DNA from: a virus
Taxonomy: Duplodnaviria > Caudoviricetes
IMG/VR virus record: IMGVR_UViG_3300032233_002382
Span: 1-64,000 of that record
Strand: one strand, 5' to 3'
DNA length: 64,000 nucleotides
The position numbers and the translations under genes were made by a program. Each line of letters opens with the position of its first letter. The stretch's first letter is position 1. Positions 13,914-62,222 of the stretch are shown one piece after another. The notes under the pieces are model-generated. The model did not search any database, was not told the DNA's origin, and was given only the letters and a program-made list of their open reading frames with translations.

Positions 13914-14225
13914 GGAAATCGGCGGGGACCCCCGTTTTCCCCAGACACGCGTCTCCCCCACCAAGAAGGGTGGGCGGAAATCGGGGGTATGGATACGTAT
14001 AGGGGGGATATAGGGGGATAGGTATACCCCCGGCGGAGATCGGCCTGCGCCCCCGTCTCTTGGGTGTGGCGGCGCTGCTCTTGCGCCGCTGCGCTGGGGT
14101 GGGCGGGGGCGGGGCCGGAAATCGGCTGCCCCGCCCGTCTCAGGGGTGGGCGGCGGCGGGGTGGTCCCGTGGCGCAGCCCCCGGCTCGACCGGAAGTCGA
14201 GCGACCCGCCCGTCGGCGGGATGCG
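13914..14225 (+). promoter_or_regulatory. Four tandem GGARR-N14-CGTY promoter-like motifs
   Basis: Motifs begin at 13914, 14035, 14117 and 14192, upstream of 14276. Confidence 0.7.
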
Positions 14226-14275
14226 AGGGCGGCGCGGCGCCCCGCAATCACCAAGCCGCGCAGGAGCCGACCAGC

Positions 14276-14695
14276 ATGAGCAACGTGAACACGATCGTCA
14301 GCAAGCTCGCCACCATCATCCCGCCCGTCATCGCCGCCCCGCCCAGCTACCCGTTCGTGGGCAAGAACGCGGTCAAGGCGACCCTCCTCGCGAACACCGA
14401 GGTGCAGCACCTCACCCTGCAGCTCATGTACCTGCTGCAGACCGACGAGGAGCAGAAGGCCAAGGACACGGAGGTCCGCAACCGCTGCGGGTTCATGTCG
14501 TCCGACGCCTACACCGGCTCGCTCCTCGCGGAGAAGCTGCTGCTGGGCATGGAGCTGGAGGGCGAGGAGGTGGCCAAGGCGGAGCGCATCGCCACCAAGT
14601 ACAGCAAGCAGCTCTCGCAGCAGCTCGTCCGCCACGCCTGCGCGCAGGACGCCCGCCTCGCGGCCTACGCCATCACCTTCTCCATCAAGGTCTAG
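14276..14695 (+). CDS. Hypothetical protein, family A copy 1 (YHLQT.DEQ..NR.GFMSSDA..KY.KQ)
   Basis: GGAGCCGACC RBS; high GC3; paralogs at 21581 and 35990. Confidence 0.85.
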   Translation: MSNVNTIVSKLATIIPPVIAAPPSYPFVGKNAVKATLLANTEVQHLTLQLMYLLQTDEEQKAKDTEVRNRCGFMSSDAYTGSLLAEKLLLGMELEGEEVAKAERIATKYSKQLSQQLVRHACAQDARLAAYAITFSIKV

Positions 14696-14782
14696 TCGGT
14701 CGGGCGGTCCCCGCCCCCACCCCTGCGAGGGGGTGGGGGCGGTCGCGTTTTCGGGTGGAAAATCATTTCCAAGGAGGCGACG

Positions 14783-14941
14783 ATGCTGCGGCACTTCGTG
14801 TTCGGGTTCGGCGGGCTGTGCGTTCTGGGTGTGTGCTTCATCGGTGGTTCGCAGACCACCCTGCCGCTCGTGGCGGGTGGATTCCTCGAGGGGGCGGTCA
14901 TGGGCTGGATCGCCTACGCGGTCACCCGCCCCGCCACCTAA
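14783..14941 (+). CDS. Small membrane protein (52 aa, not in ORF track)
   Basis: AAGGAGG RBS; MLRHFVFGFGGLCVLGVCFIGG...; followed by a hairpin. Confidence 0.7.
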   Translation: MLRHFVFGFGGLCVLGVCFIGGSQTTLPLVAGGFLEGAVMGWIAYAVTRPAT

Positions 14942-15030
14942 GGCAGGTCAGTCCATTTGAGGCCGGATCCCATCGCGGGATCCGGCCTCATTCGTATATC
15001 GGGTGAACCCATTTAACGGAGGTATGGCAT

Positions 15031-15210
15031 ATGTTTCTGAAGTACGTGGCAGCATTTCTCGCAGTCATGGCCATGGGGGTCGTCCTCAGCGCCTTCTGGA
15101 TCTACGCGTACCTCTTGATCGAGAATGCCCACCTAGGTCTCATCAAGGGAGTGACCCGTTCGACGCGGGAATGGCTCTGGACGTTCCGGCTCCGCAAGTC
15201 CATGTACTGA
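15031..15210 (+). CDS. Small membrane protein (59 aa, not in ORF track)
   Basis: GGAGG RBS; MFLKYVAAFLAVMAMGVVLSAFWIYAYLL... Confidence 0.6.
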   Translation: MFLKYVAAFLAVMAMGVVLSAFWIYAYLLIENAHLGLIKGVTRSTREWLWTFRLRKSMY

Positions 15211-15229
15211 GATATACTACACATTTCGA

Positions 15230-15270
15230 AGATATCCCCCACCCATCATCGAGATGGGTGGGGGATATCT
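15230..15270. terminator. Inverted repeat, 18-bp stem
   Basis: AGATATCCCCCACCCATC-ATCGA-GATGGGTGGGGGATATCT. Confidence 0.6.
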
Positions 15271-16139
15271 GTTTCGGGCGGAAGGTGTGAACGAAACGGA
15301 ACCGGAAGCTCGATCGGTCCGTCGTCTGTTGGGTGTGGGGCGACGCTGCAGCGTTCGTTCCCGATATACTGGTGGGGTCGCGCCAGTATATGGCATAGGG
15401 TAGTGCGACCCATCCCCTCACTCCGCCGAGTGATGGCACTCAGCCCAAGGGAGCGTGAGCCGTCTGGCGAGTGGCAGCTCGTGAGCGGGATAGTCTGCCG
15501 GAAGGGTGGGTAGGGGGATATGAAACCAAACCCCCGGCCATATGGCTAAAGTCTGGTCGATATATTGTCGGCCTACCCCACCAGGACGCCCAAGGCCGCA
15601 AATGGGGCGCCAATATGAAGACAGGGCCGCCGACCCTGAACCCGAACCAAGGAGGCGCAAGTGCAGCTGGCTTTCGAGATCTTCACGATCGGCGTGACTT
15701 CGTTCGCTTTCGGGCAGGCCGCATCGTTCGTGATCGACGTCGTTCGAGATAGGTAGTATATCGAACGAACCCCTGGCAGGGGTTCGGCGTGGAATGCCAG
15801 TTCGGAAGGGAGCCCTCGCGCTTGAGGGGCGTACCTTGGTCGGCTCCGCCCTTAGGGTGGTTGGCTCCCGACCCCGAATTCCGGCGAAACCACCCGAACC
15901 CCGCCAGGGGTTATTTCGTTGTCGGGTATCTATATCAAAATAAATCTTCAAAGTATACCCTATACCTCAAAGGGGACCGGAGATCGCGCCTCGCGCCCGT
16001 CATATGGATGTGGGGCGGCAGACCTACGGCGCCTGGGCGGATGCCAGCCAGGGGGTAGGGACCCGTGATAGACCATTGTGCGGCGGGATGGAAATCCTGG
16101 GCGATGGGAGCAATTAACTGCAATAAAGGAGCCGACCAA

Positions 16140-16622
16140 ATGCGAAACACCCTCTGCAACTGCCCGGTCACCATCAAGGGCCACGTCGAGCACATGGCCA
16201 AGTTCGTCGGCGTCCAGAAGAAGATGGACCCCGAGCTGGTCCCCGCGCTCGTCCGTAACCTCCGCTTGGCGGGGATGGCCAAGAAGCACATCCTCAAGCA
16301 CCTCTACGGCCTCGAGAGCAACCCGACGAGCAGGCCGACCATCACCGAGACCCGCCCCGCCGACCGGTGGGTGGCCTGCCGGACCGGTCACATCACGCCG
16401 CTCCTGGAGCACGCCAAGGTCTGCCCGAACGGCATCACCCCGCAGCACGTCATCGCGGCGTTCTGGTCCCACGGCAAGGCGGTGGCCCGCAAGAAGCACC
16501 CCAACGCGACCGCGCCGTGCGACACCCTGGCGAACCGCCTCATCGCTGAGGCCAACCGCCACGGTCTCAGCGGGATCGCGGAGGGCTTCAAGACCGCCAT
16601 GCGCTTCAACCGCACCTGGTAG
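16140..16622 (+). CDS. Hypothetical early-type protein
   Basis: GGAGCCGACC RBS; high GC3; motif at 15979 upstream; 34-bp palindrome downstream. Confidence 0.8.
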   Translation: MRNTLCNCPVTIKGHVEHMAKFVGVQKKMDPELVPALVRNLRLAGMAKKHILKHLYGLESNPTSRPTITETRPADRWVACRTGHITPLLEHAKVCPNGITPQHVIAAFWSHGKAVARKKHPNATAPCDTLANRLIAEANRHGLSGIAEGFKTAMRFNRTW

Positions 16623-16739
16623 TCCGAAAGGCGGTCGAGCCCCAGTCCCGTCGACGGGACTGGGGCTCGTGCTGTCTCTGGGTTAAGAGACCTATTTCCT
16701 TTGACTTCCTTTGCATTCAAAGGCATCGAGCACGGCACG

Positions 16740-17390
16740 AGTAGCCATCTATCCCTTTGAATAAAAGAGAAGTGCCCTTCTTTTAAAGACGCCGCGAGAT
16801 ATCGAGTTCTGACAGCGAATAGGGATATCGGAGTTCCGAATCCTTTATAGAGAGACCTCTCAGATTTTATAAGTTATATCCCATACTTTTATAAACTGAC
16901 ATAGATATATTGATAAAAAGTATCCTATATTTTCTTTAAATCTCAACACTCTAAACTTTTAAACTGTAAAGTGGGATGCAGACTACGGAAGAAGGGATCC
17001 AATCCCGTTGGAAGTTTGAAGTCCTGTTCGAGAGGATTCAAACTTCCAATCCCCTACCAGGGGATACCGGTATAACCGTGGAAGATTTAAAGAAAATATA
17101 GGATATCTAAAACTCCTCACTCTTAGATATCTAGAAAGAAAAAGTTTTTTTCTTTTCTTTCTTTTTCTTTTCTTCGATTCCGTTCTGCTTTATGAAATAA
17201 AGAAGAACCTCTGAGACGAAGTCTAAGAGTAATAAGTCTAGAAGCAATAGGAACAGTTTAACCAGTAGAAGTAAGAGTAGAAGCGTTAAAGGTAGAAACA
17301 GCGGATAATGCAGTAGATTTAGAAACAATATATACCATATATTTAGTAAAACAGTATGGGGTTGGTCCGCAGAGTTTTTATATGAATTAA
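16740..17390. other. AT-rich non-coding region with repeats (origin- or terminus-like)
   Basis: No credible ORF; pyrimidine tract, recurring TAGAA units, 13-bp inverted repeat at 17008..17049. Confidence 0.4.
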
Positions 17391-17394
17391 GTAT

Positions 17395-17838
17395 GTGGCG
17401 GACTTTATTAGAGTGGCTCGAAGTGTCTTGAATGTTCGGTATGCTTCGGGTATTTTAATTTATTCGAATAGCACCGGACGATTCCTTCTAATTCAAAGAA
17501 GCCAATCGGTCCCAGATCCTTTAACTTGGGGTCCGGTTTCTGGATATATTGAGAAGGGAGAAGATCCTCTTACGGCGGTTCGAAGGGAAGCATTTGAAGA
17601 AATCGGTCTAAGTCGTATAGAGATAGATCCGATCCCTCTTTACACGTTTGAGAATGAATCGCTGAAATTCTTTAATTTCATGGGGAACGTTGATAGGGAA
17701 TTCGATCCGGTACTCGATTCTGAATCGGTGGACTTCGTCTGGACTACTATGGACTCTCTACCGGCTCCCTTACACCCCAATTTCCAGATATTCGTAGATA
17801 GTTTCATAAACCCCTTGTTATCCTTAAAACGGGGGTGA
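17395..17838 (+). CDS. NUDIX hydrolase
   Basis: Nudix box GYIEKGEDPLTAVRREAFEEIG. Confidence 0.88.
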   Translation: MADFIRVARSVLNVRYASGILIYSNSTGRFLLIQRSQSVPDPLTWGPVSGYIEKGEDPLTAVRREAFEEIGLSRIEIDPIPLYTFENESLKFFNFMGNVDREFDPVLDSESVDFVWTTMDSLPAPLHPNFQIFVDSFINPLLSLKRG

Positions 17839-17842
17839 CCCA

Positions 17843-18061
17843 ATGCCTGGATTCGTAAAGACACCTGCTGACGAAAAGCTTTGGTCGAAAGCCAAAAGAC
17901 AAGCGAAGAAGGGTCTTGGCCTTAAGAAAACCCCGAAATCTGGGGAGGCAAAGGACTCGTTTTATGCTTACGCTAATAAAGTCTTTCATAACCTAAAGAA
18001 GCAGAAGAAAAAGAGGAAGGCCTCTTTAATTTCTATAGCTTCTCGGATCTCTAACCCTTAA
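17843..18061 (+). CDS. Small basic protein
   Basis: DEKLWSKAKRQAKK; Lys-rich; ends ISIASRISNP. Confidence 0.7.
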   Translation: MPGFVKTPADEKLWSKAKRQAKKGLGLKKTPKSGEAKDSFYAYANKVFHNLKKQKKKRKASLISIASRISNP

Positions 18062-18072
18062 AGGAGTCTGCA

Positions 18073-19765: not shown

Positions 19766-19853
19766 CGGTCGGCTCCTTGGCGGCAGAAGCGCCGCACAGG
19801 AAGGACGGGCGGCGAGGTCGATCTCCGCCCGTCCTTCTGTTAGACTATCTGAT

Positions 19854-20069
19854 TTAGGCCCTCTCCCCGACGAGGAACTGGATGCCCCTCACGAGGCAGA
19901 AGGGGAGCGCCATGCCCGCCGCGACGCTCGCGAGGCCCGCGACGTTCACCTGCCAAGCAGGAACCTGCTCGAAGCCGGGGCATGTCGCGACGGACATGAA
20001 GTGGCCGCCGAACATCACGATCGCGCCCACGGTCATGAGCTTCTGGATCTCGGTCTGCTTCTTCCACAT
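19854..20069 (-). CDS. Small two-TM protein
   Basis: Motif at 20132 (-); GGAGG RBS; two hydrophobic segments. Confidence 0.7.
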   Translation of the reverse strand: MWKKQTEIQKLMTVGAIVMFGGHFMSVATCPGFEQVPAWQVNVAGLASVAAGMALPFCLVRGIQFLVGERA

Positions 20070-20149
20070 GATAGAGCCTCCAAGGTCGGCAGGAGCGCCG
20101 CACCAAGGAGACGGAGAGAGTAACAGGTTTCCGGTTGGCTTTAGATGGC

Positions 20150-20452
20150 TTACTTCGATTCAGATTTTGACTCTAAATTATGGATTCGTGCTTCAAGTGG
20201 GGCGACTTTTATCGAAAGTTCTTCGACTTTTGAATTCAGTTTCTCGAGAGTCTTATCTAACTGGTCCATTGAACGCTTGAGCAGATATCCGATAAAACCG
20301 AGAGCCAGCGTGACGGCTAGCGACAACGCCCAAACAGGAATGACGACACCGCCTGGAACGGTCGGGCTTTGAGCGGCTGCGGCTTCTGCCAAGACGAGCG
20401 GCATGCCACCGACCACCGCGAGAGCCGAACCGATCAAGCTGGAATCTGACAT
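20150..20452 (-). CDS. Small membrane protein with coiled-coil tail (holin-like topology)
   Basis: Two hydrophobic segments then LDKTLEKLNSKVEEL. Confidence 0.5.
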   Translation of the reverse strand: MSDSSLIGSALAVVGGMPLVLAEAAAAQSPTVPGGVVIPVWALSLAVTLALGFIGYLLKRSMDQLDKTLEKLNSKVEELSIKVAPLEARIHNLESKSESK

Positions 20453-20577
20453 TCTTGTGCTCCCGATTCTTTCTTTGATCCGGTAATAAAAGGCTTTAAA
20501 CATGATGCTTAAAAATAATCCCAACAACGAATTAGCCCTCTAACGAGATAAACCCGTTAGAGGGCTAACACGTCGCG

Positions 20578-20805
20578 TTATCGGGTCTTGAGCCATATCG
20601 CGATCGTTGCGGTGTCGACCGAGATGATCTCCTTCATCTCGACCTTATGGAAGGCCACCCACTCGGCGAACCCTTCGCGCCCCGAGGTGGTGTTCGGGAA
20701 TGTCATGGTCCCGAGGAGTGTTCCCTCCTCCGTCTTCAGCGGGAGATCGACCTCGCCGTTCGCGTGGAACGTCATCGTCGACTCCACCATTCGCCAGCCC
20801 ATCAT
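20578..20805 (-). CDS. Hypothetical early-type protein
   Basis: Motif at 20867 (-); GGAGG RBS. Confidence 0.7.
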   Translation of the reverse strand: MMGWRMVESTMTFHANGEVDLPLKTEEGTLLGTMTFPNTTSGREGFAEWVAFHKVEMKEIISVDTATIAIWLKTR

Positions 20806-20955
20806 GCTCGCCTCCGAATGCGCGTCCATCGCGCCCACCAGATGGACGAACAGACGGTCTGGTTTCCGCTCGTCTTGGTTTTAGCCAGGTACTTTTAAAG
20901 TAGATCCCTGGTTTGCGAACTGGGAATGGGCGTTGAGGCCCATTCCCAGTCGTGA

Positions 20956-21171
20956 CTAACCCATTCGGCTCAAGAGCTCCTTGCCGGTGGGCGTGGTCGT
21001 CAAGGTGTATCCCTTGCGCTCCACCAGCCGCAGCTCGACCATCTTGCTCACGAGCCGGTCGTACTGGTCGAGGCTCACCCCGTGCCCTTGGAAGGCCAGG
21101 AAGAGCGGCCCTTCGGGCGCGTTGCCGCCAGAACCCTCAATCGTCTCGAGCACCGCCTTGATGATCTCCAA
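20956..21171 (-). CDS. Small winged-HTH-like protein
   Basis: Motif at 21232 (-); LVSKMVELRLVERKG..YTLTTTPTGKELL resembles a wHTH wing. Confidence 0.55.
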   Translation of the reverse strand: MEIIKAVLETIEGSGGNAPEGPLFLAFQGHGVSLDQYDRLVSKMVELRLVERKGYTLTTTPTGKELLSRMG

Positions 21172-21580
21172 GCTCGCCTCCTCGCGGCACCAGCGCCGCC
21201 CACCAAGGAGACGACAGTCCGAGCTGATCTCCGCCGGACTTTAAAAGGGATGTTCAAAACGAATGGTCTGTCTCAAAGGGGACCGGAAGCTGGCGGGCCG
21301 TCGCGTCTGTTGGGTGCGGCGGCGGTGGTGCCGCACGGCGGCGCGGCGGAGATTGGGCTGCGGCGGCGTCGGTTGGGTGCGGACGACGCGAGTCGGCGGG
21401 GATTGAGCGACAGCCCCGTGTCTCGTAGGCTCCGATGGTCTGGCAATGTGCGTCCTGATGGAAATCGGGGGCATTGTCTTTCGGCAGCGTCGGGTGGTCC
21501 GACGTGAATCCGGAAACCGGTGAATCCCGCCGTCCATGGGATGGGAAGCGTCCCCCTGAGTGACGCATGGAGCCGACCAA

Positions 21581-22006
21581 ATGAACCACTTCAACTCGAT
21601 CGACACCGTCATGGCGTTCGTGGCGGAGAAGCTGCCGCCGGTCATCGCCGCGCCCCCGGCCTACCCCTTCATCGGGGAGAAGGCGGTCCGCGCCGCCCTG
21701 CAGAGCGACTACGACCTGCAGGAGGCGGTGCTCGTCATGCTCTACCACCTGCAGACGCAGGACGAGCAGGCGACCCGCGACACGAAGACCAAGAACCGGG
21801 CGGGCTTCATGAGCAGCGACGCCTTCCACGGCACCCGCATCGCGGAGGCGCTCGTCCTGGGCCTCTGCCTCGAGCACGAGGACATCGAGCGGGTGCAGCG
21901 CATCGCGACCAAGTACGCCAAGCAGACCACGGTCCAGCTCAGGCGGGTGGCGATGCAGCAGGATGCCCGTCTGGCGGCCTACGCCACGGTCTTCAGCATC
22001 AAGTAG
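21581..22006 (+). CDS. Family A copy 2
   Basis: Three promoter motifs upstream (21285, 21348, 21512); GGAGCCGACC RBS. Confidence 0.85.
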   Translation: MNHFNSIDTVMAFVAEKLPPVIAAPPAYPFIGEKAVRAALQSDYDLQEAVLVMLYHLQTQDEQATRDTKTKNRAGFMSSDAFHGTRIAEALVLGLCLEHEDIERVQRIATKYAKQTTVQLRRVAMQQDARLAAYATVFSIK

Positions 22007-22694: not shown

Positions 22695-22803
22695 ATATAA
22701 TATATCTAATAAAGGATCCACATACTCCAGTGTCAGACCGGAGATCGGTCCGGCGTCTCGTCCTTTGGGTGGCGGCGGTGGTCGTCGCCCAGTAGGAGCT
22801 GAG

Positions 22804-23217
22804 ATGAAATCGCCTCGCTTGGTTAGGTTCGTCGAGGAGCACGCCGGTCTCGATGGCGTGGAGATGAAAGGACCCTGGGGTCGCGTGACGAAGTATGTCA
22901 CGGAGAACCGTATCTCAGGCCAGATCTTCGGGCCTGGCTTCCATGGGAGTGATTCCGCTATCGCCACCGTCCTCGAGGGCGTGATTTACGAGGTGATGGA
23001 GGAATTCGATGGAGAGCTCTATCCGGTCTTCGAACCGGACGACTCCTCTGAGTACGAATTCGGGGAGCGCGAAGCGATCGATGCTCGTCGAGCGCAGGAA
23101 CCGGAGCCTGAGGAGGATGTCGCTGAGACGCCTCGTGTGCTTCGACACAAGTTCCAGCGGGAACGTCGTCGCGAGCAATGTCGCCGGTTCGACGAGCACT
23201 ATCCCGAACTCGACTAA
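22804..23217 (+). CDS. Hypothetical early-type protein
   Basis: Motif at 22740; GGAG RBS. Confidence 0.7.
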   Translation: MKSPRLVRFVEEHAGLDGVEMKGPWGRVTKYVTENRISGQIFGPGFHGSDSAIATVLEGVIYEVMEEFDGELYPVFEPDDSSEYEFGEREAIDARRAQEPEPEEDVAETPRVLRHKFQRERRREQCRRFDEHYPELD

Positions 23218-23298
23218 TTTCCCTGGACGCAGGGGCGGAGATCGAGCCGCCCCTGCGTCCCCTTGGTGGGCGCGGTGGTCGCGCCATGGAGGCAGACG

Positions 23299-23709
23299 AT
23301 GTTTGAGAACAACCTGCGCGTGCAGTTCGTGGACAACAACACCCTGCTCGAGACGGTGGGCCGGTTCCAGGAGGTCCGCAAGGTGATCGAGGTCTTCGGC
23401 GCGACCGGCACGCTCAAGGCCATCTCCCCCGTCTACTGCTGCTACGACTGCGACGGGGAGGGCTGGTGGGAGGAGATCGCGGTCGTGAACGAGGGCCGCA
23501 TCTGGCCGACGTCCCCCTCCTCCTTCGAGCCGGAGAAGTTTGGCCCCGAACGCACCCTCCGCACCCGCAACACCACGTACGTCCTGGCGAACTACATGCC
23601 GGGGGCGGGGTGGCCCGACGCCCAGAGGTTCACCCGCAGGGAGGGGCGGCGCGCGGCGCGGCGCTTCGGCAAGGCCATCGTCGCGGAGGCGATGGCCGAG
23701 CTCGAGTAA
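23299..23709 (+). CDS. Hypothetical early-type protein
   Basis: Motif at 23237; GGAGG RBS; CYDCDG. Confidence 0.8.
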   Translation: MFENNLRVQFVDNNTLLETVGRFQEVRKVIEVFGATGTLKAISPVYCCYDCDGEGWWEEIAVVNEGRIWPTSPSSFEPEKFGPERTLRTRNTTYVLANYMPGAGWPDAQRFTRREGRRAARRFGKAIVAEAMAELE

Positions 23710-23934
23710 GATTGAGGGGAGGTCCCATTCGGGACCTCCCCTCATGTCGTTCAAAATGGCGGAGGATATCCGATTCGAACGGATGGTACCTTTCGATACG
23801 CCTGTTTAGTAGACAGGTGCCTTAGACCACTCGGCCAATCCTCCAGATCTTAAACTATACACCCCAAAGCAGATCGGAAATCGGTCGTTCGGTTCGTCTT
23901 TTTGGTGGGCGGTGGTCGCCCGATTGGAGGTCCG

Positions 23935-24228
23935 GTGCATTCTGGCGAGTCGAATCTGAACGGTAAGAAGGTGTGCGAGGATTGCGCCCAGTCTCTTGAG
24001 ACCAGGGTCTGCATGTCAGCGGCAGGATACTACCTCGGGAGCTGGTGTAACTGTGGCCCCTATTCCCGCGAGTCCGGGTATTTCGGCTCGAAGCAGGAGG
24101 CGGAGGTCTGCCTCAGGGAGTGGGAAGAGATGCTTCGGGTCGCCCACATCCATGAGGAGAGGCCCAGTCTCCCGAACGAGCGCAAGACCGGCTTCAACCC
24201 TGACGGTCTCACGGTCGAGTTCCTCTAA
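23935..24228 (+). CDS. Small Cys-containing protein
   Basis: Motif at 23876; GGAGG + GTG; CEDC...SAAGYYLG.WCNCGPYSRESGYF. Confidence 0.75.
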   Translation: MHSGESNLNGKKVCEDCAQSLETRVCMSAAGYYLGSWCNCGPYSRESGYFGSKQEAEVCLREWEEMLRVAHIHEERPSLPNERKTGFNPDGLTVEFL

Positions 24229-24546
24229 CTGCATGGCCCCTGGCGGGAATTCCCGCCAGGGGCCATGGGTGCATCAATGATCATTCTTGAATATCTCTCT
24301 TATCCTTTCGTCTGGGCTAAATTCTGCTTTCGGTTCGGATTCAAATACGGCTCGAAGAGGTTCCATTACTTCTGGCTTGAACGAATCTGGGTTCGGAACG
24401 GAGGCGAACTAAGGACCCTCAGGGAGCGCCAATGAGTCAGATGCATATCGGCCAGATCTTCTTGAACAAGTGTTCAGAAATCCTGGATTGTCTCCCGGAA
24501 ATCTCTGGTGTATCTCGTCTAGACGCACTAGAGGAGGCGTATTATA

Positions 24547-24861
24547 ATGTCCGATCTGCTTACGCCTGGGGACATCCAAATGCAATCCAATACGCCCGTG
24601 GAGTCCCCGAGTTCGACGAATTCAGACAACTCACTATTAGAGACGTCGACCTTCCCCGAACGACTCATCTATCGACTGGACGCTGCCGTTGCAGGGGAGA
24701 GTCTACACGACGTCATGCTTGCGATGGCTAGTGTGATCGGAAGGCGTTTCGGTAAGACACATTTCGGCTTAGTGTCCCATGTTTTATCATCAATGGTATC
24801 TATTGTTCGTCTCAATGACCAGGAATCATCATTGAAGCCCAAAGTCCGTCGCAAGAAGTGA
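24547..24861 (+). CDS. Hypothetical protein (frame ambiguous versus 24432..24731)
   Basis: Two overlapping frames; neither recognisable. Confidence 0.35.
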   Translation: MSDLLTPGDIQMQSNTPVESPSSTNSDNSLLETSTFPERLIYRLDAAVAGESLHDVMLAMASVIGRRFGKTHFGLVSHVLSSMVSIVRLNDQESSLKPKVRRKK

Positions 24862-24948
24862 TCTGATTTAAAGAAGGTCGGAAGCTGGTCGCTGGGCGCG
24901 TCTCCTTGGTGGGCGGCGCGCCCATTCCTCGCGCCAGGAGCCGACCAC

Positions 24949-25218
24949 ATGCAGGCAGATTTCACCCAGCTCGACGGCACGGCCACTCGCGACCAGCGGG
25001 TCTCCCTCAGCGACGTCCTCTCCTTCCTCCAGAAGCCGGAGGCGGCCATCGCCCACGTGAAGAGCAATGGGGTCGAGGTGGTCGTCTACAAGGACGCGGG
25101 GTTTGGCGTGACGGTGGGGGTCGAGACGGAGAGCCAGGAGATGGCCTTCCGGGAGTTCTCCGCCCAGGAACAGGCGCTCAAGTACATGATCCTCTCGCTC
25201 GCCGCCGGTTCCCGCTAG
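24949..25218 (+). CDS. Hypothetical early-type protein, distantly similar to the next two
   Basis: Motif at 24880; GGAGCCGACC RBS; VSLSDVLSFLQKP resembles ITMGDVVEHLQKP. Confidence 0.8.
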   Translation: MQADFTQLDGTATRDQRVSLSDVLSFLQKPEAAIAHVKSNGVEVVVYKDAGFGVTVGVETESQEMAFREFSAQEQALKYMILSLAAGSR

Positions 25219-25300
25219 AGAAAGTTGGAAGTCCGCCGCGCCGCCCGTCTATTGGATGGGCGGCGCGGCGCCCATTTCATCCCCGCGCATGGAGCCGACC

Positions 25301-33473: not shown

Positions 33474-33491
33474 ATGTAAGATGAGGAGACC

Positions 33492-34196
33492 ATGACACAC
33501 AAAGATTCAATCGAGTATTACCGCAGCGTTGCGAAGAATTTCCCTCCCCTGAAGAGGGAGGATGAAACCAAACTTTTGAAGAGAGTCAAAAGGGGAGATA
33601 AGCAAGCCCGAGAGCTCCTTGTTAAGCATAACTTAAACCTTATAATTATGCTTGCCAAAAAGCAAGAAAAGACCGGACTGGCACTCGAGGATCTAGTCCA
33701 AGAAGGAATGGCGGGTTTTGTTCATGCCATAGACAAGTTTGACCTCAAGAAGGAAGTGAAGCTATCGACCTACGCGGTTTGGTGGGTCAATGCTTTCATA
33801 TTCCGCCACGCGAGGTCCGCTCGCGGTCCGGTCAAGTTGCCGAACAAGCGGAAGGATGGAGAGCTCCCGCCGTTCCCACGTTCCGTGTCGATGTCGTCGC
33901 CGATCGGGGAAAACGATGACGGAGAGTTTCTGGATTTGTTCGCTGACGAATCGCCGCTCATTGATGAACAATATGACCGTGAGACCGCAAGCGGCGGGAT
34001 TCGCTCATCCCTGAAGAAGATGGGATCCTTAGGATCAATCGGACGTGACATTGTTTATGAGCGTCTAATGGCAGAAGAGCCTATGACGCTCGATGAGATC
34101 GGAAAGCGGCACGGGCTCTCTAGGGAACGAATTCGTCAGTTAGAGGTCGGAGTTAAAGATAAGCTCCGGAAGCGTCTCATGGACTATGCAGCTTAA
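33492..34196 (+). CDS. Sigma70-family RNA polymerase sigma factor (RpoH/group 3-like, compact)
   Basis: Region 2 EDLVQEG...AIDKFD...STYAVWW; region 4 MTLDEIGKRHGLSRERIRQLE. Confidence 0.92.
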   Translation: MTHKDSIEYYRSVAKNFPPLKREDETKLLKRVKRGDKQARELLVKHNLNLIIMLAKKQEKTGLALEDLVQEGMAGFVHAIDKFDLKKEVKLSTYAVWWVNAFIFRHARSARGPVKLPNKRKDGELPPFPRSVSMSSPIGENDDGEFLDLFADESPLIDEQYDRETASGGIRSSLKKMGSLGSIGRDIVYERLMAEEPMTLDEIGKRHGLSRERIRQLEVGVKDKLRKRLMDYAA

Positions 34197-47026: not shown

Positions 47027-47112
47027 CAACACCTCCAACGGACGAGCGCCGCGCCCGCCCACACAAGGGACGAGCGCGGCGTCCGACTTCCAGATTTACT
47101 TCAGTGGTAGTT

Positions 47113-47640
47113 CTATCCTTTGTCAGTCTCATGGAGAATCTTCTCGATCAACGCCACCCGATACTTCTTTCTCTTAATCTCCTGAAGCTTACTAATTAAG
47201 AGTTGGTTCTGCTTGGCAAGCTCCTGATATTCCCAGACTTCTTTCGGAATCTCGTCATCGGGGACCCGAATTTTCATGCAGAGAGACTCGATGGGTGGTT
47301 TTTCCGCCACGAGTTCATATTCGTACTTACCGTCGAAAATCTCACTCTGACGGAAGTAAATATCGATCTCGGTACCAGGAATCACTAATTCGATCGAAGG
47401 AACGACTTTGGATAGGCTCTTCGGAATGTAGTCGAGAGGACCGTTTGAGTGGGCACCGACCTTGCCAAAGATGAGATTCATTTTCTTCTGAACTTCGGCG
47501 AGTTCCTGGTTGATCAGCTCCTCGGCCTTTGCCGCGATATAGTCGGCAATTTCGGATACGGTGAGCTTGCTCTCGGCATATGTTGCCATCAGGTTGGCCG
47601 TAATTCCATCAATCTTTTCAATCGCGCCAGTCTTCGACAT
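47113..47640 (-). CDS. Hypothetical early-type protein
   Basis: Motif at 47707; GGAGG RBS. Confidence 0.75.
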   Translation of the reverse strand: MSKTGAIEKIDGITANLMATYAESKLTVSEIADYIAAKAEELINQELAEVQKKMNLIFGKVGAHSNGPLDYIPKSLSKVVPSIELVIPGTEIDIYFRQSEIFDGKYEYELVAEKPPIESLCMKIRVPDDEIPKEVWEYQELAKQNQLLISKLQEIKRKKYRVALIEKILHETDKG

Positions 47641-47938
47641 ATCGAACCTCCAAAATGGTGACGCCCTGCGCGTCCCACAGAGGGAACGAGCGGGGCGTCC
47701 GACTTCCATATCTGATTTAAGGGATCCGATATTTCACTTCAATAAGTTAGTCGAACGGGTAGTAGTCTCGGATTCACACACCCATCAACCCTGAACTAGT
47801 GCCGGTCTTTCATTATACGTAAGTCGCTTCTCTCTGAAAGTGTAGTTGTCCCGGCATCACTTTCACATCAAAGAGTCGCCTAGGCTAGCCTTACGACCAG
47901 CCCGTACTAACTAGAGAACCATACATAGGGCCTCCTTT

Positions 47939-48599
47939 CTAAGAGTTATGGACTTCATAGACGGGTCGGTTTTTGATCTTATTCGCGATCGTGATTCCGA
48001 TCTTCCGAAGGTTCATCATTGATTCAGGCCTGAAGCGAACTCGATAAAACATACGAGGGTGTTGCTCAACCGTCATCACGTAAACCGAGACTTCGCGTTC
48101 ATCAACGCCGATCGAGAGGTTGTAGGAGTGATCATCTTTCGTGATTAGGATGTCCCATCCCTCATGAGCCTCCGCTCGCATCTTAAACCTAGGACGGTTG
48201 AAGACGGAGCGGAGGCTCGTCGAGACGTGATCCCTTAGAGCGTAGAATGGCTCGCGACTATGCAGCACTCTTCTTCGCCTTCTGGATTGCCTGAGCGTAC
48301 TTGGTCAGCTCGTAAACAGCTCTCTCAAACCGGCTGTGCGCTCGCGACCAATCCTGCTTACACTCGAGAGATTGCTTCTCCCAGTCAGCCCCCTTCTCCT
48401 TCTCGAAGCGCTTGAAGTGGTCGTTCTTGTCGTCGTGGGCGTTCACAAGTTCCTCGAGAAGAGAATCGAGTCCCTTGTCCAGCGCCTTGGCCTCGATCTC
48501 AAGACTGTAGAGTCGTGTGCTGACGGCCTTGTTCAGTTCAGTCGTCGCGTTACGGATGGTTTCGATCGCCTTCGTGATCATCTCGGTCTCGGTCATCAT
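47939..48599 (-). CDS. Two genes: 48258..48599 (coiled coil) and 47939..48268 (tagged, VYEVHNS)
   Basis: Motif at 48660. Confidence 0.7.
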
Positions 48600-48796
48600 A
48601 ACCCCCAAAGAGGGCGGGAGAATCCGCCCACACAACAAACGCACCGACGGCCCGATTTCCATACTGACTTCAGACTTCCCACCATTGAGCCAAGAACATA
48701 CCGATTAGTGACGTCCAAATACAAGACCACCGAAGGGTCTCATCGGTTGCAAATACACCGATAAAGAACATGAACGAAAGAATACCTTGAGTTCTC

Positions 48797-49539
48797 TTAG
48801 TCAACGTTAACCATCTGTTCAGCAATGACCCTTCGTTCAGTTCGCCTGTTCACTCGTGCAGTATCTCCATCCTTCCTCGCGTGGCACATTCCCGAGTGGT
48901 CTGAACAATTACACCCGAGGGCACTGCGCTTCCTGAACTTCCCAGGCTCCTCAGCGTCCTGCTTAGTGGACCAGCTGAACCAGGAATAGACCCGCTGGCG
49001 GAGCTTAGCCCGCTTGGCAACGATCTTCCCGTTCCGATGCCGACGCTCTGATCTATGCATTAGTCCTCCACTTGGACTTCATGAACCGAATAAGGAACGG
49101 TCTGAACGAACTCAATCATCTGTTCCCGACGCTCATCGCCCGCAGGAAGCAGACGATAAACGGTCTGGAAATAGCGAACAAATCGCTCAAGCTCCTCGTG
49201 CGATCCAGACTCCTTGATCGTGTTAAAATCTACCTCCATCGACTCTTCTTCCTCGTTATGGATCTCGATCGGAGTGATCAGGTCCTTGAACTGCTCCATG
49301 AACTTGATGCCGTCCTCTTGCATGAAGCTCCATACCCCGTCGTTCAGGTAAGTGATAAAATTGCTTGAGAGGACGAGATCCTCATTTGCTGCGTTACAGG
49401 CCTTGCGCGCCTTCTCCTCGCTCTTATAAAGAGAGCGCGGGCTTGAATAACCCTCTGTCGCGTTATAGTAGTTGTCGTCGTACTCGTAGTGGGTTTCAAG
49501 AACCGCGTACATCAACTGAGTGCTCTTCTTCTTAGCCAT
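48797..49539 (-). CDS. Two coupled hypothetical genes (49060..49539, 48797..49060)
   Basis: Stop-start coupling; GGAGG RBS. Confidence 0.7.
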
Positions 49540-49916
49540 TAGTCCACCACCTCAACATTGTGACGGGAAAGGGAAATGGTCATCGGACGGGGCTTGATCT
49601 CAGGAGCGCCCATCCACGGCTCCATCGGGAGAGAAGCAAGACACTTTTCAAGCGTCGGAATGTGGCCTAGATCTTCGATCACATGAGCCTCGAGGATATC
49701 ACGCACCGCAACGGTCTTTCCATCCGAGTTTGTGATATAGACCCCGAACTTATCTTGGCCTTGGTAGATCCCCCAGGCGTTATGGAGAATCATCCGGTGC
49801 CTCATGTCGGGCACCAGCATTTTCGTGTGGTCCATCCACTCATGAAGCGGGATGTAGTCGTCGAGCTTGCCGCCGAACTTACGAACAGAATTCTTGGCGT
49901 GCGTCAAAGGCTTCAT
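49539..49916 (-). CDS. DUF6915-like protein
   Basis: PLTHAKNSVRKFGG..DY..LH.W.D...RHR..LH...G...EAHVIEDLG.IP; motif at 49957. Confidence 0.6.
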   Translation of the reverse strand: MKPLTHAKNSVRKFGGKLDDYIPLHEWMDHTKMLVPDMRHRMILHNAWGIYQGQDKFGVYITNSDGKTVAVRDILEAHVIEDLGHIPTLEKCLASLPMEPWMGAPEIKPRPMTISLSRHNVEVVD

Positions 49917-49966
49917 GCGAACCTCCACCGGAGAAACGAGCGGAGCGACCGACTTCCACATTTACT

Positions 49967-51124
49967 TCAGTGCTCGTATGGGTGTGGAACGACAACAACT
50001 TCTCCATCTTCAGTCTCAACTTCCACCGATCGGTTTTCCAGCACCTTCATCTGCAACTTCGGGCTAGTTCCAGCAAAGGCTAGAATTAGGGCTTCATCTG
50101 GGTGGATGGCTTCGTGGTGACCTTCCCCGCACCACATGAACATCCGGATTGGTGGGAAAATGTCCATGTACTTAAGCTTCGGATGATCGATCTTGATGAC
50201 TAGACAGTCTTCAACCCGAGTCTCACCGACTTCCCAAGCGTATCCGTGAGTTTCAATCATTCCCTTGATGCAGGTGCGAGCCCAGCCAGGAAGAGACTTA
50301 ACGTCTTGCTTCTCGAACTTCATCCCGGAATTGACGAGCTCTTCGAACTTATCTGAAACTCTCGCGATCAGATCGTCGATTTCCTTGTCGGTCATCTTAG
50401 GCTCCCATCACATTCTCTACGCAGAATTCATCAAGTGCTTCCTGGAACACCTGCTGCCATTCTTCTCGAGTCAGCTTCGCTACGTTGCGCTGCCCCATCC
50501 AATGTTTAAGCCGGAGCTTTACTCCATCAGTTACTTGGGTCTTCTGGTATTGCCTCAAATTCGATACTTCAACTTCTTCAAAAGACTGGACCTGACCGCC
50601 AAGCCACCTAATATGGCCTTCGCTATACTTGTCTTTCCACTTCGTCGGATCGCCGTGAGTTAACAGGTGTTTCTCGCAAATCCCGATGATGGCTTCTTGT
50701 CGCCAACGACCGTTTGTCCGAACCTTGAAGAACTTCTTCCCATACTTCGGGCACGTACCGATCTTTTCGTGGTTGTACTTCTCGTTGAAGCTCTTCACGA
50801 GCACCTGACATCTGGTCGACATATTACCTCCTATTCCGAATGAGTCCGTCTAACTTCCTTATCATGACTACAGATCTTCATCAGATTCACATAGTGCAGA
50901 ACGGCTGCCATCGGAGCATGGTGGATTATCGCGACAAAGTACTCGCTCTCTTCTAGCTCGGAGAAATACTCCGCATCTTCATGGCCCGCATTCGGGCCAG
51001 ATATTACAACGAATCGGGCTCGAGGACTAGTCTCTTCGCCCTCGATACCGGTTACTAGACTATAATCATAATCGGTATCGACTATGATCGACCCGACACG
51101 AATCTCATCGGACGAAATAGGCAT
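49967..51124 (-). CDS. Three hypothetical genes (50831..51124, 50397..50822, 49967..50395)
   Basis: Motif at 51168; the first two end VRRTHSE and VENVMGA. Confidence 0.7.
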
Positions 51125-51176
51125 GCGCGGCTCCTCCCGTGGTGGGACGAGCCGCGCTGCCGATTTCCGGATTATT

Positions 51177-56296: not shown

Positions 56297-56340
56297 TTAA
56301 ATCCCCTTTAGGGGTTAGAAGTGAGTCATGCTCGTTTAAA

Positions 56341-59185: not shown

Positions 59186-59683
59186 TCTGAAGATTTCGGA
59201 CCATCATCTGGTCACAGTCGTGGAAATTAGTAAACTGAATCTTAGCGGAACTTAATGGTCTGCAGCAATAATAAATGTCCATCCCATCCATCTCTTTTAT
59301 GCCTAGTCCAATTGTCATAGTTCGGTTCGGAAGGCGGTTACCAAGCCACTTCGTCTTACACTGGTTACAAATCCATGTCGAATGATATGCACTAAGTTCT
59401 TCCCATTTATGAGCTCGCATGCTCAAGCCTGATTAACATGCAAAGTCGCCATGAAACCGCAGTCGCGGAATTCACTTACATCGAACTGGTGTGGAACATG
59501 CATCCCAACTTCGTAGTAGGAAACGCCCCCAGTCTGAGAGACTGTTCCCTGCACATTCTTCACCGTGGTCGGGTAGCTCGATCCACGATACCTGGTTCCG
59601 CAATCCGAGCAAATGAACACACGAGAATGGATGCTGCCCTGTGATAAGTCGGGACCAGATTTCTTCCATCGGTGTTTCTTCAT
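59178..59683 (-). CDS. Two more Zn-finger family members (59423..59683, 59178..59426)
   Basis: HRW/HKW...CxxC...DC + tag; motif at 59745. Confidence 0.75.
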
Positions 59684-59758
59684 TATTCACCAACACGCCA
59701 GCGCGGCGGCCCCCATGATAGGAACGCGCCGCGCCGCTGATTTCCGTGTATGATTTAG

Positions 59759-59932
59759 CTATTCCGCCTGAGACGGTTTCTCAGGCCTCACCATACAAAA
59801 GCGGCAATTAGGATCTCTACACTGGGCCTCTAGCCACTTGTCGCACGGGACGCAATAGTATGCGTCATGTCGATCGTTCCGGATGACTTTGGGTTTTGCG
59901 CAACCGCATTCAGGATAGAATTTAGGCATCAT
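59759..59932 (-). CDS. Cys-rich 57-aa protein (not in ORF track)
   Basis: ...DAYYCVPCDKWLEAQCRDPNCRFCMVRPEKPS. Confidence 0.7.
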   Translation of the reverse strand: MMPKFYPECGCAKPKVIRNDRHDAYYCVPCDKWLEAQCRDPNCRFCMVRPEKPSQAE

Positions 59933-60793
59933 TATCATCCATTGGATCTGGGAGACCGCGAATCACCCACGCACACTCGTCGGCTCCGTGGGCGGTCAAA
60001 GACTCGTGTGGATGAGCGAGAGCCGACCGACATTTCATGGCCACAAGGTCGCTTGCCTGTGCTGCCGCATCCCGCATCGCTTTAACGCCTCGTTTGAAAG
60101 CTAACTTCTCATAGTCCTTGCGGAGAGCGATCATCTCGGACGTCATCTTATTCACGTCTTCTTGAGAGTACGTCAGATCTACGGGCTCTGCAAGAACTTC
60201 ATTGATTTTGTGCTCAAGTTCGCCAATGTATCGAACGCCCATATACTCACCAAGAACGAGACGGTTCGAAGCGATAACGCCCTGGGCTTCTTCAAGAGTT
60301 TCCCTTATCTTATCACTCATCTTGAACATTCCTCACTGACATGTATTCGCAGTCGTGGAAATTCCATTCTACGATATAGACACCAGCTCTTACATCTGGA
60401 ATTCTATGAAATTGCGACATCTCAGTACCCTGAAAATGCTTGGTGTAACACTGTCCCTTGCGAGGCTTTTCCATCCCGTAGGCGGTGGAATCACATTCAT
60501 TGCAAATCCAAAACAAATCACGCTCTGGAGCTTTTCTCCATTTGTGCGTTTTCATCCGATTTTGCCTCCAAGTAGGACTTCAGAAGATTGACATCTTGGA
60601 TTATCAAATCTATCTTCTTCTGATTCGGTGGCTTCCCGTACGAACCATCCTGGTGACACTGAATCTGGAATTCCTGCTCCCGAACCATATCACATACTAC
60701 CTTTCGATAGGCTTCCATCAGCTCATCGGGTGAGAATCGAACTGACTTATCGTACATGGCAAAATGAAGATAATTCTCAACGGTCGGCTTCAT
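59922..60793 (-). CDS. Three genes: 60518..60793, 60313..60555 (Zn-finger family, VRNVQDE), 59922..60329
   Basis: Motif at 60838. Confidence 0.7.
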
Positions 60794-60878
60794 GTGATCA
60801 AACCTCCACCGGAGGAACGAGCGGAACGTCGGATTTCCATATTTAGGTTTTTATATACTGTTACACCTGGAGGATATC

Positions 60879-61385
60879 ATGAAACCAACCGACCTATCGT
60901 CAGCTCTACGCCGCATCGCTTCGAAAATCGAAGCTTCAAAATCCCCAAGCCGAGAACTCGTACTCAAAGATTTGAATAGTTTGGTTCGGAAGATGGCTAT
61001 GGATGATGATTCTCAGGATGATAGTAGTCTTCCTACCGGCGTACATGAAGTCATATCTATGCCGAATGCCGAGTTCACTGTCACTATCGATTGTACGAGG
61101 GGGAGTTCTGGAGTCATAGGTGAGTGTACCATCCAGATACAATCTGAGTGGTCTGAAATCCCGTCTGTAGTTTCTGCTGTACAAAGTATTGATAGAGAAA
61201 TCAACAGTGCCACCACTGGTGAATATTGGGCTATGGTACCAGACAACTTGCCCAAGGCGGCTCGAAGCGCCACGGACGGTTGGATAACTGGATACCTTGT
61301 GTGGTGCTTAGAAAATGGGAAATTCGAAGGCCAACCTGATATCGGTCAGTTTATTTTCAAGTTTGACGTTCTTTTCGAAGGCTAA
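60879..61385 (+). CDS. Protein with N-terminal PSxLSxxLRRIA domain
   Basis: MKPTDLSSALRRIASKIEASKSPSRELVLKDL; GGAGG RBS. Confidence 0.8.
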   Translation: MKPTDLSSALRRIASKIEASKSPSRELVLKDLNSLVRKMAMDDDSQDDSSLPTGVHEVISMPNAEFTVTIDCTRGSSGVIGECTIQIQSEWSEIPSVVSAVQSIDREINSATTGEYWAMVPDNLPKAARSATDGWITGYLVWCLENGKFEGQPDIGQFIFKFDVLFEG

Positions 61386-61463
61386 TAACCGGCTAGATGA
61401 CGATCATGATTCCATTCACGAATCATGAGCCAAACTAAGCGAACCAAAGAATCTTCGATGTAT

Positions 61464-61521
61464 AAAAAGCCGGAGTGATAAGCGCACCAGACTGAAACTG
61501 GGCTTATCACTCCGGCTTTTT
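61464..61521. terminator. Bidirectional intrinsic terminator
   Basis: AAAAAGCCGGAGTGATAAGC...GCTTATCACTCCGGCTTTTT. Confidence 0.85.
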
Positions 61522-61539
61522 CTTTCCAGATCTTCATAT

Positions 61540-61617
61540 TGGCGCTCCTGGAGGGAGTCGAACCCCCGACCGTCGCCTTAGAAGGGCGCTGCTCGTATCC
61601 AGCTGAGCTACAGGAGC
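61540..61617 (-). tRNA. tRNA-Arg(TCT)
   Basis: GCTCCTG...CGCC CTTCTAA GGCG...TTCGACT...CAGGAGC G CCA. Confidence 0.92.
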
Positions 61618-61619
61618 AA

Positions 61620-61795
61620 ATATCCCATCAGGTCCGGTCGGCGTTGCAGCGCCGCCCTTCGCATACTGCAATATACCGCGCTTTCTCAAAGGCGCGCCTG
61701 ATGGAAAACGAGTCCCTGCCGGTCAATTCCGGTAGATTCACGGTGTTCAGCACACCGCCATTCTTTTACCGCCCTTAGCGGGCAGTCCAGGGAAA
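61620..61795 (-). ncRNA. Candidate structured RNA between tRNA-Lys and tRNA-Arg
   Basis: No ORF; nested stems CCATCAGG/CCTGATGG and TCCCTG/CAGGGA enclosing several hairpins. Confidence 0.4.
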
Positions 61796-61871
61796 TGGTG
61801 AGGACGGTGGGGTACGATCCCACAACCAACGGCTTAAAAGGCCATTGCTCTACCAATTGAGCTACGTCCCC
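61796..61871 (-). tRNA. tRNA-Lys(TTT) with non-canonical T-loop
   Basis: GGGGACG...ATGGC CTTTTAA GCCGT...GTGGG ATCGTAC CCCAC CGTCCTC A CCA. Confidence 0.9.
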
Positions 61872-62195
61872 GAAATCTGACTGATTTTACATTTAAAGTG
61901 TCGGCTCGCCCCATAACCCGACCGAATTGCCGAGTATTTTCCACCCGCTGCCGACCGATCCGCCTGAGGAAAGACGAACCCCCTGTGATTACGATTTTAG
62001 GAGTGGTAAATCGCGTGCGGCTCACCGCAAGCCGTTTTTATTTCTTGTTGGCTCGCCCCGTCGGGATTCCACTCCCGAACACCGCCGCTACCAACTTGTG
62101 CTTCCTGGAAAGGTTTAACAGGAAGCTTTGCCCCTGTGATCCGCTGAGAGGCGGTAGATGAATTCGCCTTCAGCTTGCGCTCACGCTCGCGTTTG
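61872..62195 (-). ncRNA. Candidate structured RNA of about 300 nt
   Basis: Several hairpins, internal repeats GGGGCGAGCC and TCACAGGGG, promoter-like motif at 62221. Confidence 0.45.
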
Positions 62196-62222
62196 CTTGA
62201 CGTTCGATTGTCGAGATTTCCG

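Follow-up and report, generated by a model that had tools for sequence, protein, structure and literature searches.

Which factor reads a short, rigidly spaced motif that stands in front of dozens of small genes in the genome of an uncultured huge phage? The DNA in question, referred to here as the window, is the stretch of bases 1-64,000 of one IMG/VR virus record (IMGVR_UViG_3300032233_002382), a linear contig of 307,777 bp with 46% GC. A first-pass annotation of the window had listed 39 copies of the pattern GGARR-N14-CGTY-N7-TG and had taken them for a promoter class similar to that of extracytoplasmic function (ECF) sigma factors, to be read by a phage RNA polymerase, by the sigma factor encoded at 33492 or by a hijacked host ECF sigma. 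We found a rigid two-box signal with GGAA and CGT boxes that is conserved in related phages, which upholds the promoter class and its ECF-like character. Judged from its sequence, it is a real, clade-wide, ECF-like phage promoter class: a known strategy with a new sequence and unusually tight spacing. We consider it rather probable that the motif serves a huge phage as promoter for one temporal class of its genes and that it is read by the host core RNA polymerase together with an ECF-like sigma factor that is conserved in the phage clade.

A two-box signal with a fixed and short spacer

The core pattern GGARR-N14-CGTY was found 44 times in the window, compared with 5.87 expected (standard deviation 2.25; maximum of 12 in 100 dinucleotide shuffles). 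On the whole contig there were 70 matches at a spacing of N14 and 19-28 at each other spacing from N10 to N20, and because the N14 count far exceeds every other one, the spacer length is truly fixed. The first-pass annotation had proposed a genome-wide motif scan; when this was done with a weight matrix of 50 columns (-12 to +38 relative to the first G of GGAA), the scores were bimodal, with 53 sites above 20 bits and just four more at 12-20 bits, while the maxima in five Markov-simulated genomes were 11-20 bits. All 53 high-scoring sites were located within 13,914-79,378, 40 of them in the window and 13 beyond it at 64.8-79.4 kb, and none at 80-308 kb or, in agreement with the annotation, in the first 13.9 kb.

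The earlier list of copies stood almost entirely, since 38 of its 39 entries were high-scoring sites. The remaining entry, 62221 on the minus strand, fits the loose pattern only, scores below 9, lacks the TG and is probably a chance match, and two sites, 39646 (+) and 43084 (-), had been missed, so that the window total is 40. The spacer was indeed 14 nt in all but one case, site 28378 being the sole N15 copy and the weakest site (21 bits). Likewise, the TG was found 7 nt after CGTY in most copies, with T at +30 in 83% and G at +31 in 86% of sites, counted from the first G of GGAA.

The consensus of the 53 sites reads AA-N8-C-GGAARTCGG, a 10-nt GC-rich spacer, then CGTY-N3-T-N3-TGG(G/A)(C/G)G, and its informative columns reach well past the three boxes described before. 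The conserved block is about 45 nt long, bipartite and asymmetric, and the spacer sequence is variable. GGAARTC and CGTY are near-invariant, with the upstream box conserved as strongly as the downstream one; in the proposed mechanism GGAARTC would serve as -35 element and CGTY as -10 element. Measured from the first G of GGAA to the G of CGT, the boxes lie 20 nt apart here and 20-21 nt apart in relatives, as compared with 22-23 nt in sigmaE, sigmaW and EcfG promoters, and the spacer is thus unusually short, as had been claimed. The sites of the window, with matrix scores, are as follows.

13914..14224, plus strand: four tandem sites (13914, 14035, 14117, 14192), 25-47 bits, upstream of gene 14276-14695 and the first sites of the promoter region
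15304..16011, plus strand: two sites (15304, 15979), 38.7 and 37.4 bits, leader folds of -30 and -24 kcal/mol
19794..21232, minus strand: four sites (19826, 20132, 20867, 21232), 35-40 bits, each 30-32 nt before a gene of 71-92 amino acids
21285..21544, plus strand: three tandem sites (21285, 21348, 21512), 28-42 bits, before gene 21581-22006 and divergent from site 21232
22740..25259, plus strand: five sites (22740, 23237, 23876, 24880, 25227), 38-51 bits, the first three leaders with a GC stem and a GTGGT loop
28378..32241, plus strand: sites 28378 (the single N15 copy), 31604 and 32209, 21, 26.5 and 39 bits
34205..39678, plus strand: six sites (34205, 35910, 36497, 37412, 38238, 39646), 32-50 bits
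35274..35306, minus strand: single site 35306, 24.7 bits, GGAGG at the predicted start, 9 nt before the start codon
43052..43084, minus strand: site 43084, 40.3 bits, the innermost minus-strand site at the convergence zone
47059..51168, minus strand: five sites (47091, 47707, 48660, 49957, 51168), 33-54 bits, 47091 being the best of the genome
53514..56754, minus strand: four sites (53546, 55171, 55564, 56754), 43-49 bits, the last three with TGGAGG at the predicted start
59713..60838, minus strand: two sites (59745, 60838), 34.5 and 34.9 bits

Placement of the sites, the genes behind them and their leaders

All 53 sites point at a co-oriented gene. Only four of them overlap an open reading frame of our home-made gene caller, each of these frames being weak or tiny; the others lie between genes, in spite of a coding share of about 90% in this genome. 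This bears out the statement that the copies are intergenic and oriented like the next gene. At most sites the G of the conserved TG lies 9-50 nt upstream of the start codon. The orientation of the sites converges at 40-43 kb, which narrows the 40-46 kb given before, and there is a divergent point at 67.6 kb. Tandem arrays head blocks of genes: one at 13.9-14.2 kb has four sites and another at 21.3-21.5 kb has three.

As the annotation had noticed, the genes that follow the sites are small and GC-rich: 51% GC with a median of 108 amino acids, compared with 44.5% and 233 amino acids elsewhere. Altogether, the 53 promoters stand over about 130 mostly small orphan genes together with a DNA ligase, a superoxide dismutase, an AAA ATPase, tRNAs and a sigma factor (s1). 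Most of these genes matched no Pfam family, the exceptions being the ligase, whose gene is preceded by site 53546 (Pfam match), a metallophosphatase, s1, a PP-loop ATPase, the superoxide dismutase, the AAA ATPase, a DUF2201 metallopeptidase and DUF6915. Site 32209 heads an operon of two small genes, the metallophosphatase and s1.

Leaders of at least 20 nt were found at about 43 sites, in which positions +1 to +30 are 73% GC and fold with a mean energy of -11.2 kcal/mol. In 36 of the 43 long leaders a stem of at least five pairs starts 0-4 nt after T30, with GGAGG and then the start codon downstream of it. At ten sites the sequence is TGGAGG; the ribosome-binding box thus coincides with the predicted 5' end, and the distance from the G to the start codon is 9-14 nt. 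Because the hairpin onset is fixed relative to CGTY, the start is predicted at TGG: the transcript most likely opens with the G or GG, located 9-10 nt past the C of CGTY, the position expected for an ECF-type holoenzyme. Stem-loops at the 5' terminus stabilise bacterial and phage mRNAs, the ompA leader being an example, and by analogy the stem-loop here probably shields the mRNA end from decay. As in ompA-type leaders, a stable hairpin lies near the 5' end and upstream of the ribosome-binding site, here 0-4 nt from the predicted 5' end; in contrast to ompA, the stem-loop, whose role is putative, is built into a whole promoter class.

Two further features of the leaders were observed. A GTGGT pentaloop on a GC stem recurs in six leader hairpins (window 22740-23900 and 34205; contig 68398) and also in the relatives L090, L093 and L109; it may be a protein-binding site comparable to lambda boxB. 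Downstream of two promoters, at 15304-15660 and 15979-17400, several hundred GC-rich nucleotides fold strongly and contain no convincing open reading frame. These regions are possible non-coding RNAs, and no Rfam family matched in them.

Conservation of the architecture in related phages

Seven orthologues of s1, 55-71% identical, were found on short metagenome contigs. The contigs whose s1 is 55-61% identical are syntenic (metallophosphatase plus sigma factor) and keep CGTT or CGTC-N7-TG together with a GC hairpin. GGAAGTCGG is present in L093, L094 and L109, and in L090/L091 GGCGCC replaces GGAAGTC at many sites. The equivalent of promoter 32209 is kept before the orthologous operon in L090, L094 and L109. 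When this operon promoter was compared across four lineages, the invariant columns were exactly GG, TC, CGT and GTG, and the spacer and leader had diverged, which is the footprint expected of a functional two-box promoter.

We then searched related genomes blindly for pairs of 4-mers with one strongly preferred spacing. The search was confined to intergenic DNA; a whole-genome version was swamped by pentapeptide-repeat genes of G002. In this genome it recovered CGGA-N16-CGTC. In G002 (IMG/VR, 257 kb, 40% GC) it found GACA-N16-CGTC at 18 sites, all on one strand at 134-163 kb; these read GACAGTCGG-N11-CGTC-N7-TG(G), have GC-rich spacers and include a four-copy tandem array at the head of the cluster, comparable to that at 13914-14192. 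The complete genome G009 (377 kb) carries CGGA-N17-CGTA at about eleven clustered sites at 222-260 kb, and the complete genome G005 (393 kb) carries CGTA-N17-YGTA, with 56 matches at N17 compared with 5-22 at other spacings. The pattern TCGG-N10/11-CGTY-N7-TG was not enriched in G005-G009, because the boxes differ there. The architecture is a property of the phage clade. It combines a CGGAA- or CGTAA-like box with CGTx at a rigid distance of 20-21 nt; the spacer is often GC-rich, and the sites are often clustered in one region.

An exact scan of viral_contigs with the extended motif gave 81 single chance matches and no record with several, and a scan of the same collection for close relatives of s1 gave only sigma factors of 30% identity. 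LR745208.1 (485 kb, with a ligase 40% identical) showed no excess of GGARR-N14-CGTY. That genome (loci L126-L150) has about 37 intergenic copies of TAAA-N17-CGATA, which has the geometry of sigma-28/FliA promoters.

Which factor reads the motif

Three sigma-like genes were identified on the contig.

33492..34196, plus strand: sigma factor s1, 234 amino acids, Pfam Sigma70_r2 and r4
contig 144,037-144,696, minus strand: s2, 219 amino acids, weakly ECF-like by profile
contig 306,140-307,426, minus strand: s3, 428 amino acids, Pfam sigma4 domain at residues 375-422

The predicted structure of s2 has two helical domains and resembles full-length sigmaE, its N-terminal domain resembling sigmaE region 2 on -10 DNA. 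More than 270 homologues at 46-75% identity were found, on contigs of up to 436 kb. Region 2 of s2 is invariant, matching the invariant GT core of the -10 box, and the last helix is variable; both points, like the ECF-like fold of region 2, speak for s2. The s3 protein combines a region-2-like N-terminus with a Cys/His-rich (zinc-ribbon) insert. Nearly all the best matches of its model are sigma factors, the C-terminal domain matches the sigma4 domain of SigL with a template-modelling (TM) score of 0.75, and its nearest clusters in feature space are ECF-like. Orthologues of s3 occur in G002 and in all five complete genomes, and both s3 and the motif are absent from LR745208.1, which counts in favour of s3. 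A further point for s3 is its promoter, TTGACT-N18-TGcTATAAT, the best sigma-70-type site of the contig, whose TTGACT is kept in G002; the promoter of s2 reads TTGnnn-N17-TGnTAGAAT and is kept in L111. When the recognition helices of s2 and s3 were compared with the -35 boxes of five genomes, neither protein was favoured. Both are core genes of the clade, and we regard them as almost equally plausible candidate readers, s2 being only slightly ahead of s3.

Several observations touch these genes. The s3 orthologues of G005-G009 (loci L179-L185) carry an extra C-terminal helix-turn-helix domain of about 100 amino acids, which is missing from s3 of this phage and of G002, the two with a -10 box of CGTC. 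A 917-amino-acid neighbour of s3 was considered as a sigma factor and rejected, as Pfam found no sigma domain in it. At contig 130,712-132,769 (+), a 685-amino-acid protein has a Sigma70_r4 match at residues 358-391 and is possibly another transcription factor.

The proposal that a phage ECF-like sigma reads the motif has to be set against several findings. The weight matrix was trained on the same sites that it scores, the gene calls came from a home-made caller, and no RNA run among public sequencing runs was listed as holding the phage. Recognition may depart from the ECF model, because the spacer is 2-3 bp below the known geometry of ECF holoenzymes. The rigid-spacing search gave no clear bipartite motif in G006 and the G003 fragment. 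As to the proteins, the Foldseek matches of the s2 and s3 models are weak (expectation value at least 0.017), and a phmmer search of both against PDB sequences found no sigma factor. Region 2 of s2 is nearly identical in this genome and G002 (-10 box CGTC) and in G005 (YGTA), which argues against s2 reading all variants, given that the box ends in C or A. The motif is missing upstream of both s2 and s3, and they thus lack the autoregulation that ECF sigma factors typically show. The choice between the sigma factors rests on elimination and co-occurrence.

Three other readers were weighed. A host ECF or other alternative sigma factor, hijacked by the phage, would fit boxes that resemble GGAAC/CGTT-type ECF promoters, and if the genes behind the sites were the earliest ones, no phage sigma would be needed beforehand. 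However, ECF sigma factors are as a rule kept inactive, classical ECF promoters have a spacing 2-3 bp longer than the present one, two -35 types occur side by side in one relative, and the phage has three sigma-like genes of its own. In addition, the same architecture with shifted boxes occurs in phages of 40-57% GC, which probably have different hosts; such a wide range of GC among clade members argues against the ECF sigma of one host and for a clade-conserved phage factor. We therefore regard a hijacked host sigma as improbable.

The second alternative is that the sites are read by s1, which would thereby amplify its own operon. It has in its favour that s1 is part of the operon headed by site 32209, that its orthologues have so far been found only on contigs that also carry the motif, and that a protein with no sigma3 domain has the two-domain layout of ECF sigma factors. 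Its sequence argues otherwise. The nearest NCBIfam models of s1 are RpoS, RpoH and RpoD, and in alignment with E. coli RpoS it keeps STYAxWW (as STYAVWW) and the sigma4.2 helix (SRERIRQLE compared with TRERVRQIQ), as in group-1/2 sigma factors. Segments of this RpoS/RpoD type recognise -35 boxes like TTGACA and -10 boxes with an A, and do not suit CGTC and GGAA, which makes s1 a poor candidate. In an alignment of eight orthologues the RERIRQ helix and the STYAxWW segment are invariant, although the contigs of the orthologues differ in the -35 box (GGCGCC compared with GGAAGTC). Moreover, G002 has the promoter class and no s1 orthologue in the 257 kb examined, and a conserved TGTAnnnT directly before s1 in three lineages fits the s1 domain better. 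The suggestion that the sigma at 33492 is the reader was thus not sustained; s1 is probably a member of the regulon and not its reader, and as reader it is about as improbable as a host factor.

Slightly less probable still is that the sites are independent of any sigma. They would then serve an undetected phage polymerase as promoters, act as operators for a DNA-binding regulator or mark the ends of mobile cassettes. In favour of this, about 28% of the genome may be missing by CheckV, the search for a single-subunit polymerase (PF00940) gave no match with a positive control that was silent too, the conserved block is long, and the sites stand before genes with more GC than the rest of the genome, a trait that imported cassettes could also show. 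Against it, the signal is strictly gene-oriented, keeps a fixed distance from ribosome-binding sites, forms tandem arrays at block heads and has the -35/-10 geometry of sigma factors, not that of a contiguous T7-type block or a palindromic operator. The 103-bp overlap of the contig ends suggests a near-complete contig, and no homologue of the multisubunit beta-subunit was found. The phage RNA polymerase named by the first-pass annotation received no support from these searches, and we return to a phage ECF-like sigma on the host core polymerase as the preferred reading.

A second promoter-like class and a putative cascade

TGTAnnnT was the only -10-like octamer enriched in intergenic DNA, with 73 copies on the whole contig compared with 36 expected; TGnTAnnnT was not enriched. 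It is 3.7-fold enriched in upstream regions outside the 65-kb block and has no conserved -35 box, as in the description of T4-type late promoters (the gp55 class), where a -10 element stands alone. Nine copies lie 13-14 nt before a start codon, implying leaderless mRNAs. Examples from the window are these.

33475..33482, plus strand: TGTAAGAT, a member of the -10-only TGTAnnnT class, 17 nt before the s1 start codon
33475 and 34561, plus strand; 43258, 46027 and 58495, minus strand: in-window examples of TGTAnnnT

The copy directly upstream of s1 is kept in three lineages (including L090/L091 and L093), and the sequence of its T-A-n-n-n-T core suggests that it suits the RpoS-like region 2 of s1. 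Outside the block we also observed a near-palindromic intergenic CGGAAATTCC box at contig positions 81434, 122314, 136168(-), 217837, 220372, 254247 and 307487(-). It lies 4-7 nt upstream of TGTAnnnT in three places, one copy is in the s3 leader, and it may be the binding site of a regulator.

These elements can be arranged in a putative cascade, the simplest reading of which is of the SPO1 type. Host sigma-70 would make s2 and s3 first; s2 or s3 on the host core polymerase would then fire the 53 promoters, including that of the s1 operon; finally, s1 would boost itself and turn on the TGTAnnnT genes across the genome.

The phage genome and its habitat

The CheckV estimate of completeness for the 307,777-bp contig is 72%. 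The last 103 bp (307,675-307,777) are identical to bases 116-218 in direct orientation, and nothing matches the first 115 bp. With this end overlap, closure of the contig on itself at about 307.56 kb is probable, and it would be nearer to complete than the CheckV value. Among public DNA sequencing runs, those that contain parts of the genome are metagenomes from freshwater and rivers, and their shares of the sampled words are small. A megablast search with 4.8 kb against a phage collection gave no match.

Pfam matches among the window genes include ThyX, a PurZ-like adenylosuccinate synthetase, a collagen-repeat protein, a glycosyl/methyltransferase, the ATP-dependent DNA ligase and the sigma factor. 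Six tRNAs of the window were agreed by two programs, and an Rfam search matched nothing but tRNAs. At 23757-23844 (-), on the strand opposite to the surrounding genes, ARAGORN called a tRNA-Ser with anticodon ACT that Rfam did not support and that is probably a false call. The PurZ-like gene (3879-5054, -) lies beside that of ThyX (1931-3235, -). The PurZ-like product is 31-35% identical to phage genes annotated as enzymes of the 2-aminoadenine pathway, including that of cyanophage S-2L, and the phage DNA may carry 2-aminoadenine. Adenine is absent from the -10 box of the promoter class in this genome with a PurZ-like gene.

Comparison with known systems and meaning of the finding

A literature search found no paper describing this motif. 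GGAA- and CGT-type boxes with a rigid spacer are hallmarks of ECF promoters (10.1101/534826; PMC3817407), and ECF sigma factors demand this rigidity, sigmaH working best with a 17-bp spacer (10.1101/534826). The promoters of E. coli sigmaE, B. subtilis sigmaW, alphaproteobacterial EcfG and M. tuberculosis sigmaH share with the present sites a GGAA-type -35 box, a CGT/GTC-type -10 box, near-invariant boxes and a rigid spacer, and their start a few nt after the -10 box is as predicted here. They differ in that the boxes here are 2-3 bp closer than the classical spacer length and that conservation continues into the GC-rich spacer (TCGG) and as far as the TGG of the start region. The present sites, moreover, belong to a phage, in which all 53 are grouped within a single 65-kb region, and neither an anti-sigma partner nor an autoregulated sigma gene stands next to a site: the sole sigma gene behind a site is the RpoS-like s1, and the ECF-like s2 and s3 lie elsewhere on the contig. 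ECF-like sigma factors of phages have been excluded from the ECF classification (10.1101/2019.12.11.873521).

Jumbo phages that have no polymerase of their own encode sigma factors (group 2, Iyer et al. 2021; PMC7824862). The present phage is similar, with no phage polymerase found, several phage sigma factors and the host core polymerase as the predicted enzyme. That survey gives the sigma proteins and not their promoters (PMC7824862), whereas here the cognate promoter family and its clade variants are laid out.

Among other classes, the boxes differ from those of housekeeping sigma-70 promoters (TTGACA-N16-18-TATAAT). Sigma-70-type sites numbered 14 in 13.8-33.7 kb compared with 14.3 expected, and near-consensus intergenic sites only six on the whole contig. 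T7-type single-subunit promoters are a contiguous block of about 20 nt, in contrast to the bipartite signal with variable spacer sequence seen here. The closest regulatory parallels are SPO1, with its cascade of gp28 followed by gp33/34, and T4, with its early, middle and late classes. As in these phages, we propose a host core polymerase with stepwise replacement of sigma, the sigma of the next step lying within the previous regulon, and a consensus for each class. The box sequences differ, however: the -10 box is ECF-like with C and no A, and the phage has at least three sigma-like proteins, of which s3 bears a zinc-ribbon insert. Unlike T4 middle promoters, the class shows no appropriation signal of the MotA/AsiA type and has a -10 box of CGTY instead of TAnnnT, and unlike T4 late promoters (gp55) it has a conserved -35 box, so that it is not a -10-only class.

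An extended proposal, which we hold to be speculative and rather unlikely, is that this freshwater clade of huge phages has a co-evolving pair of sigma factor and promoter with a -35/-10 geometry 2-3 bp tighter than that of any characterised ECF holoenzyme. The -35-reading domain would be repositioned, perhaps through the zinc-ribbon insert of s3 (about 250 amino acids), giving a new mode of promoter recognition, and the adenine-free -10 box would possibly be suited to a 2-aminoadenine genome. If true, the tight geometry would widen the known ways of placing sigma domains on the core polymerase.

For the phage itself, the finding provides a readable transcription map of an uncultured 308-kb genome, in which a 65-kb block of about 130 mostly orphan genes is under a single promoter class and a second, -10-only class is suggested for the rest; the three sigma-like proteins could form a cascade. 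The rigid, short spacer would also offer compact and probably orthogonal sigma/promoter parts for synthetic biology. For the clade, several related genomes of 257-436 kb also carry this promoter family and two of the sigma-like genes, so that the variation of boxes and proteins can be paired to derive rules of specificity.

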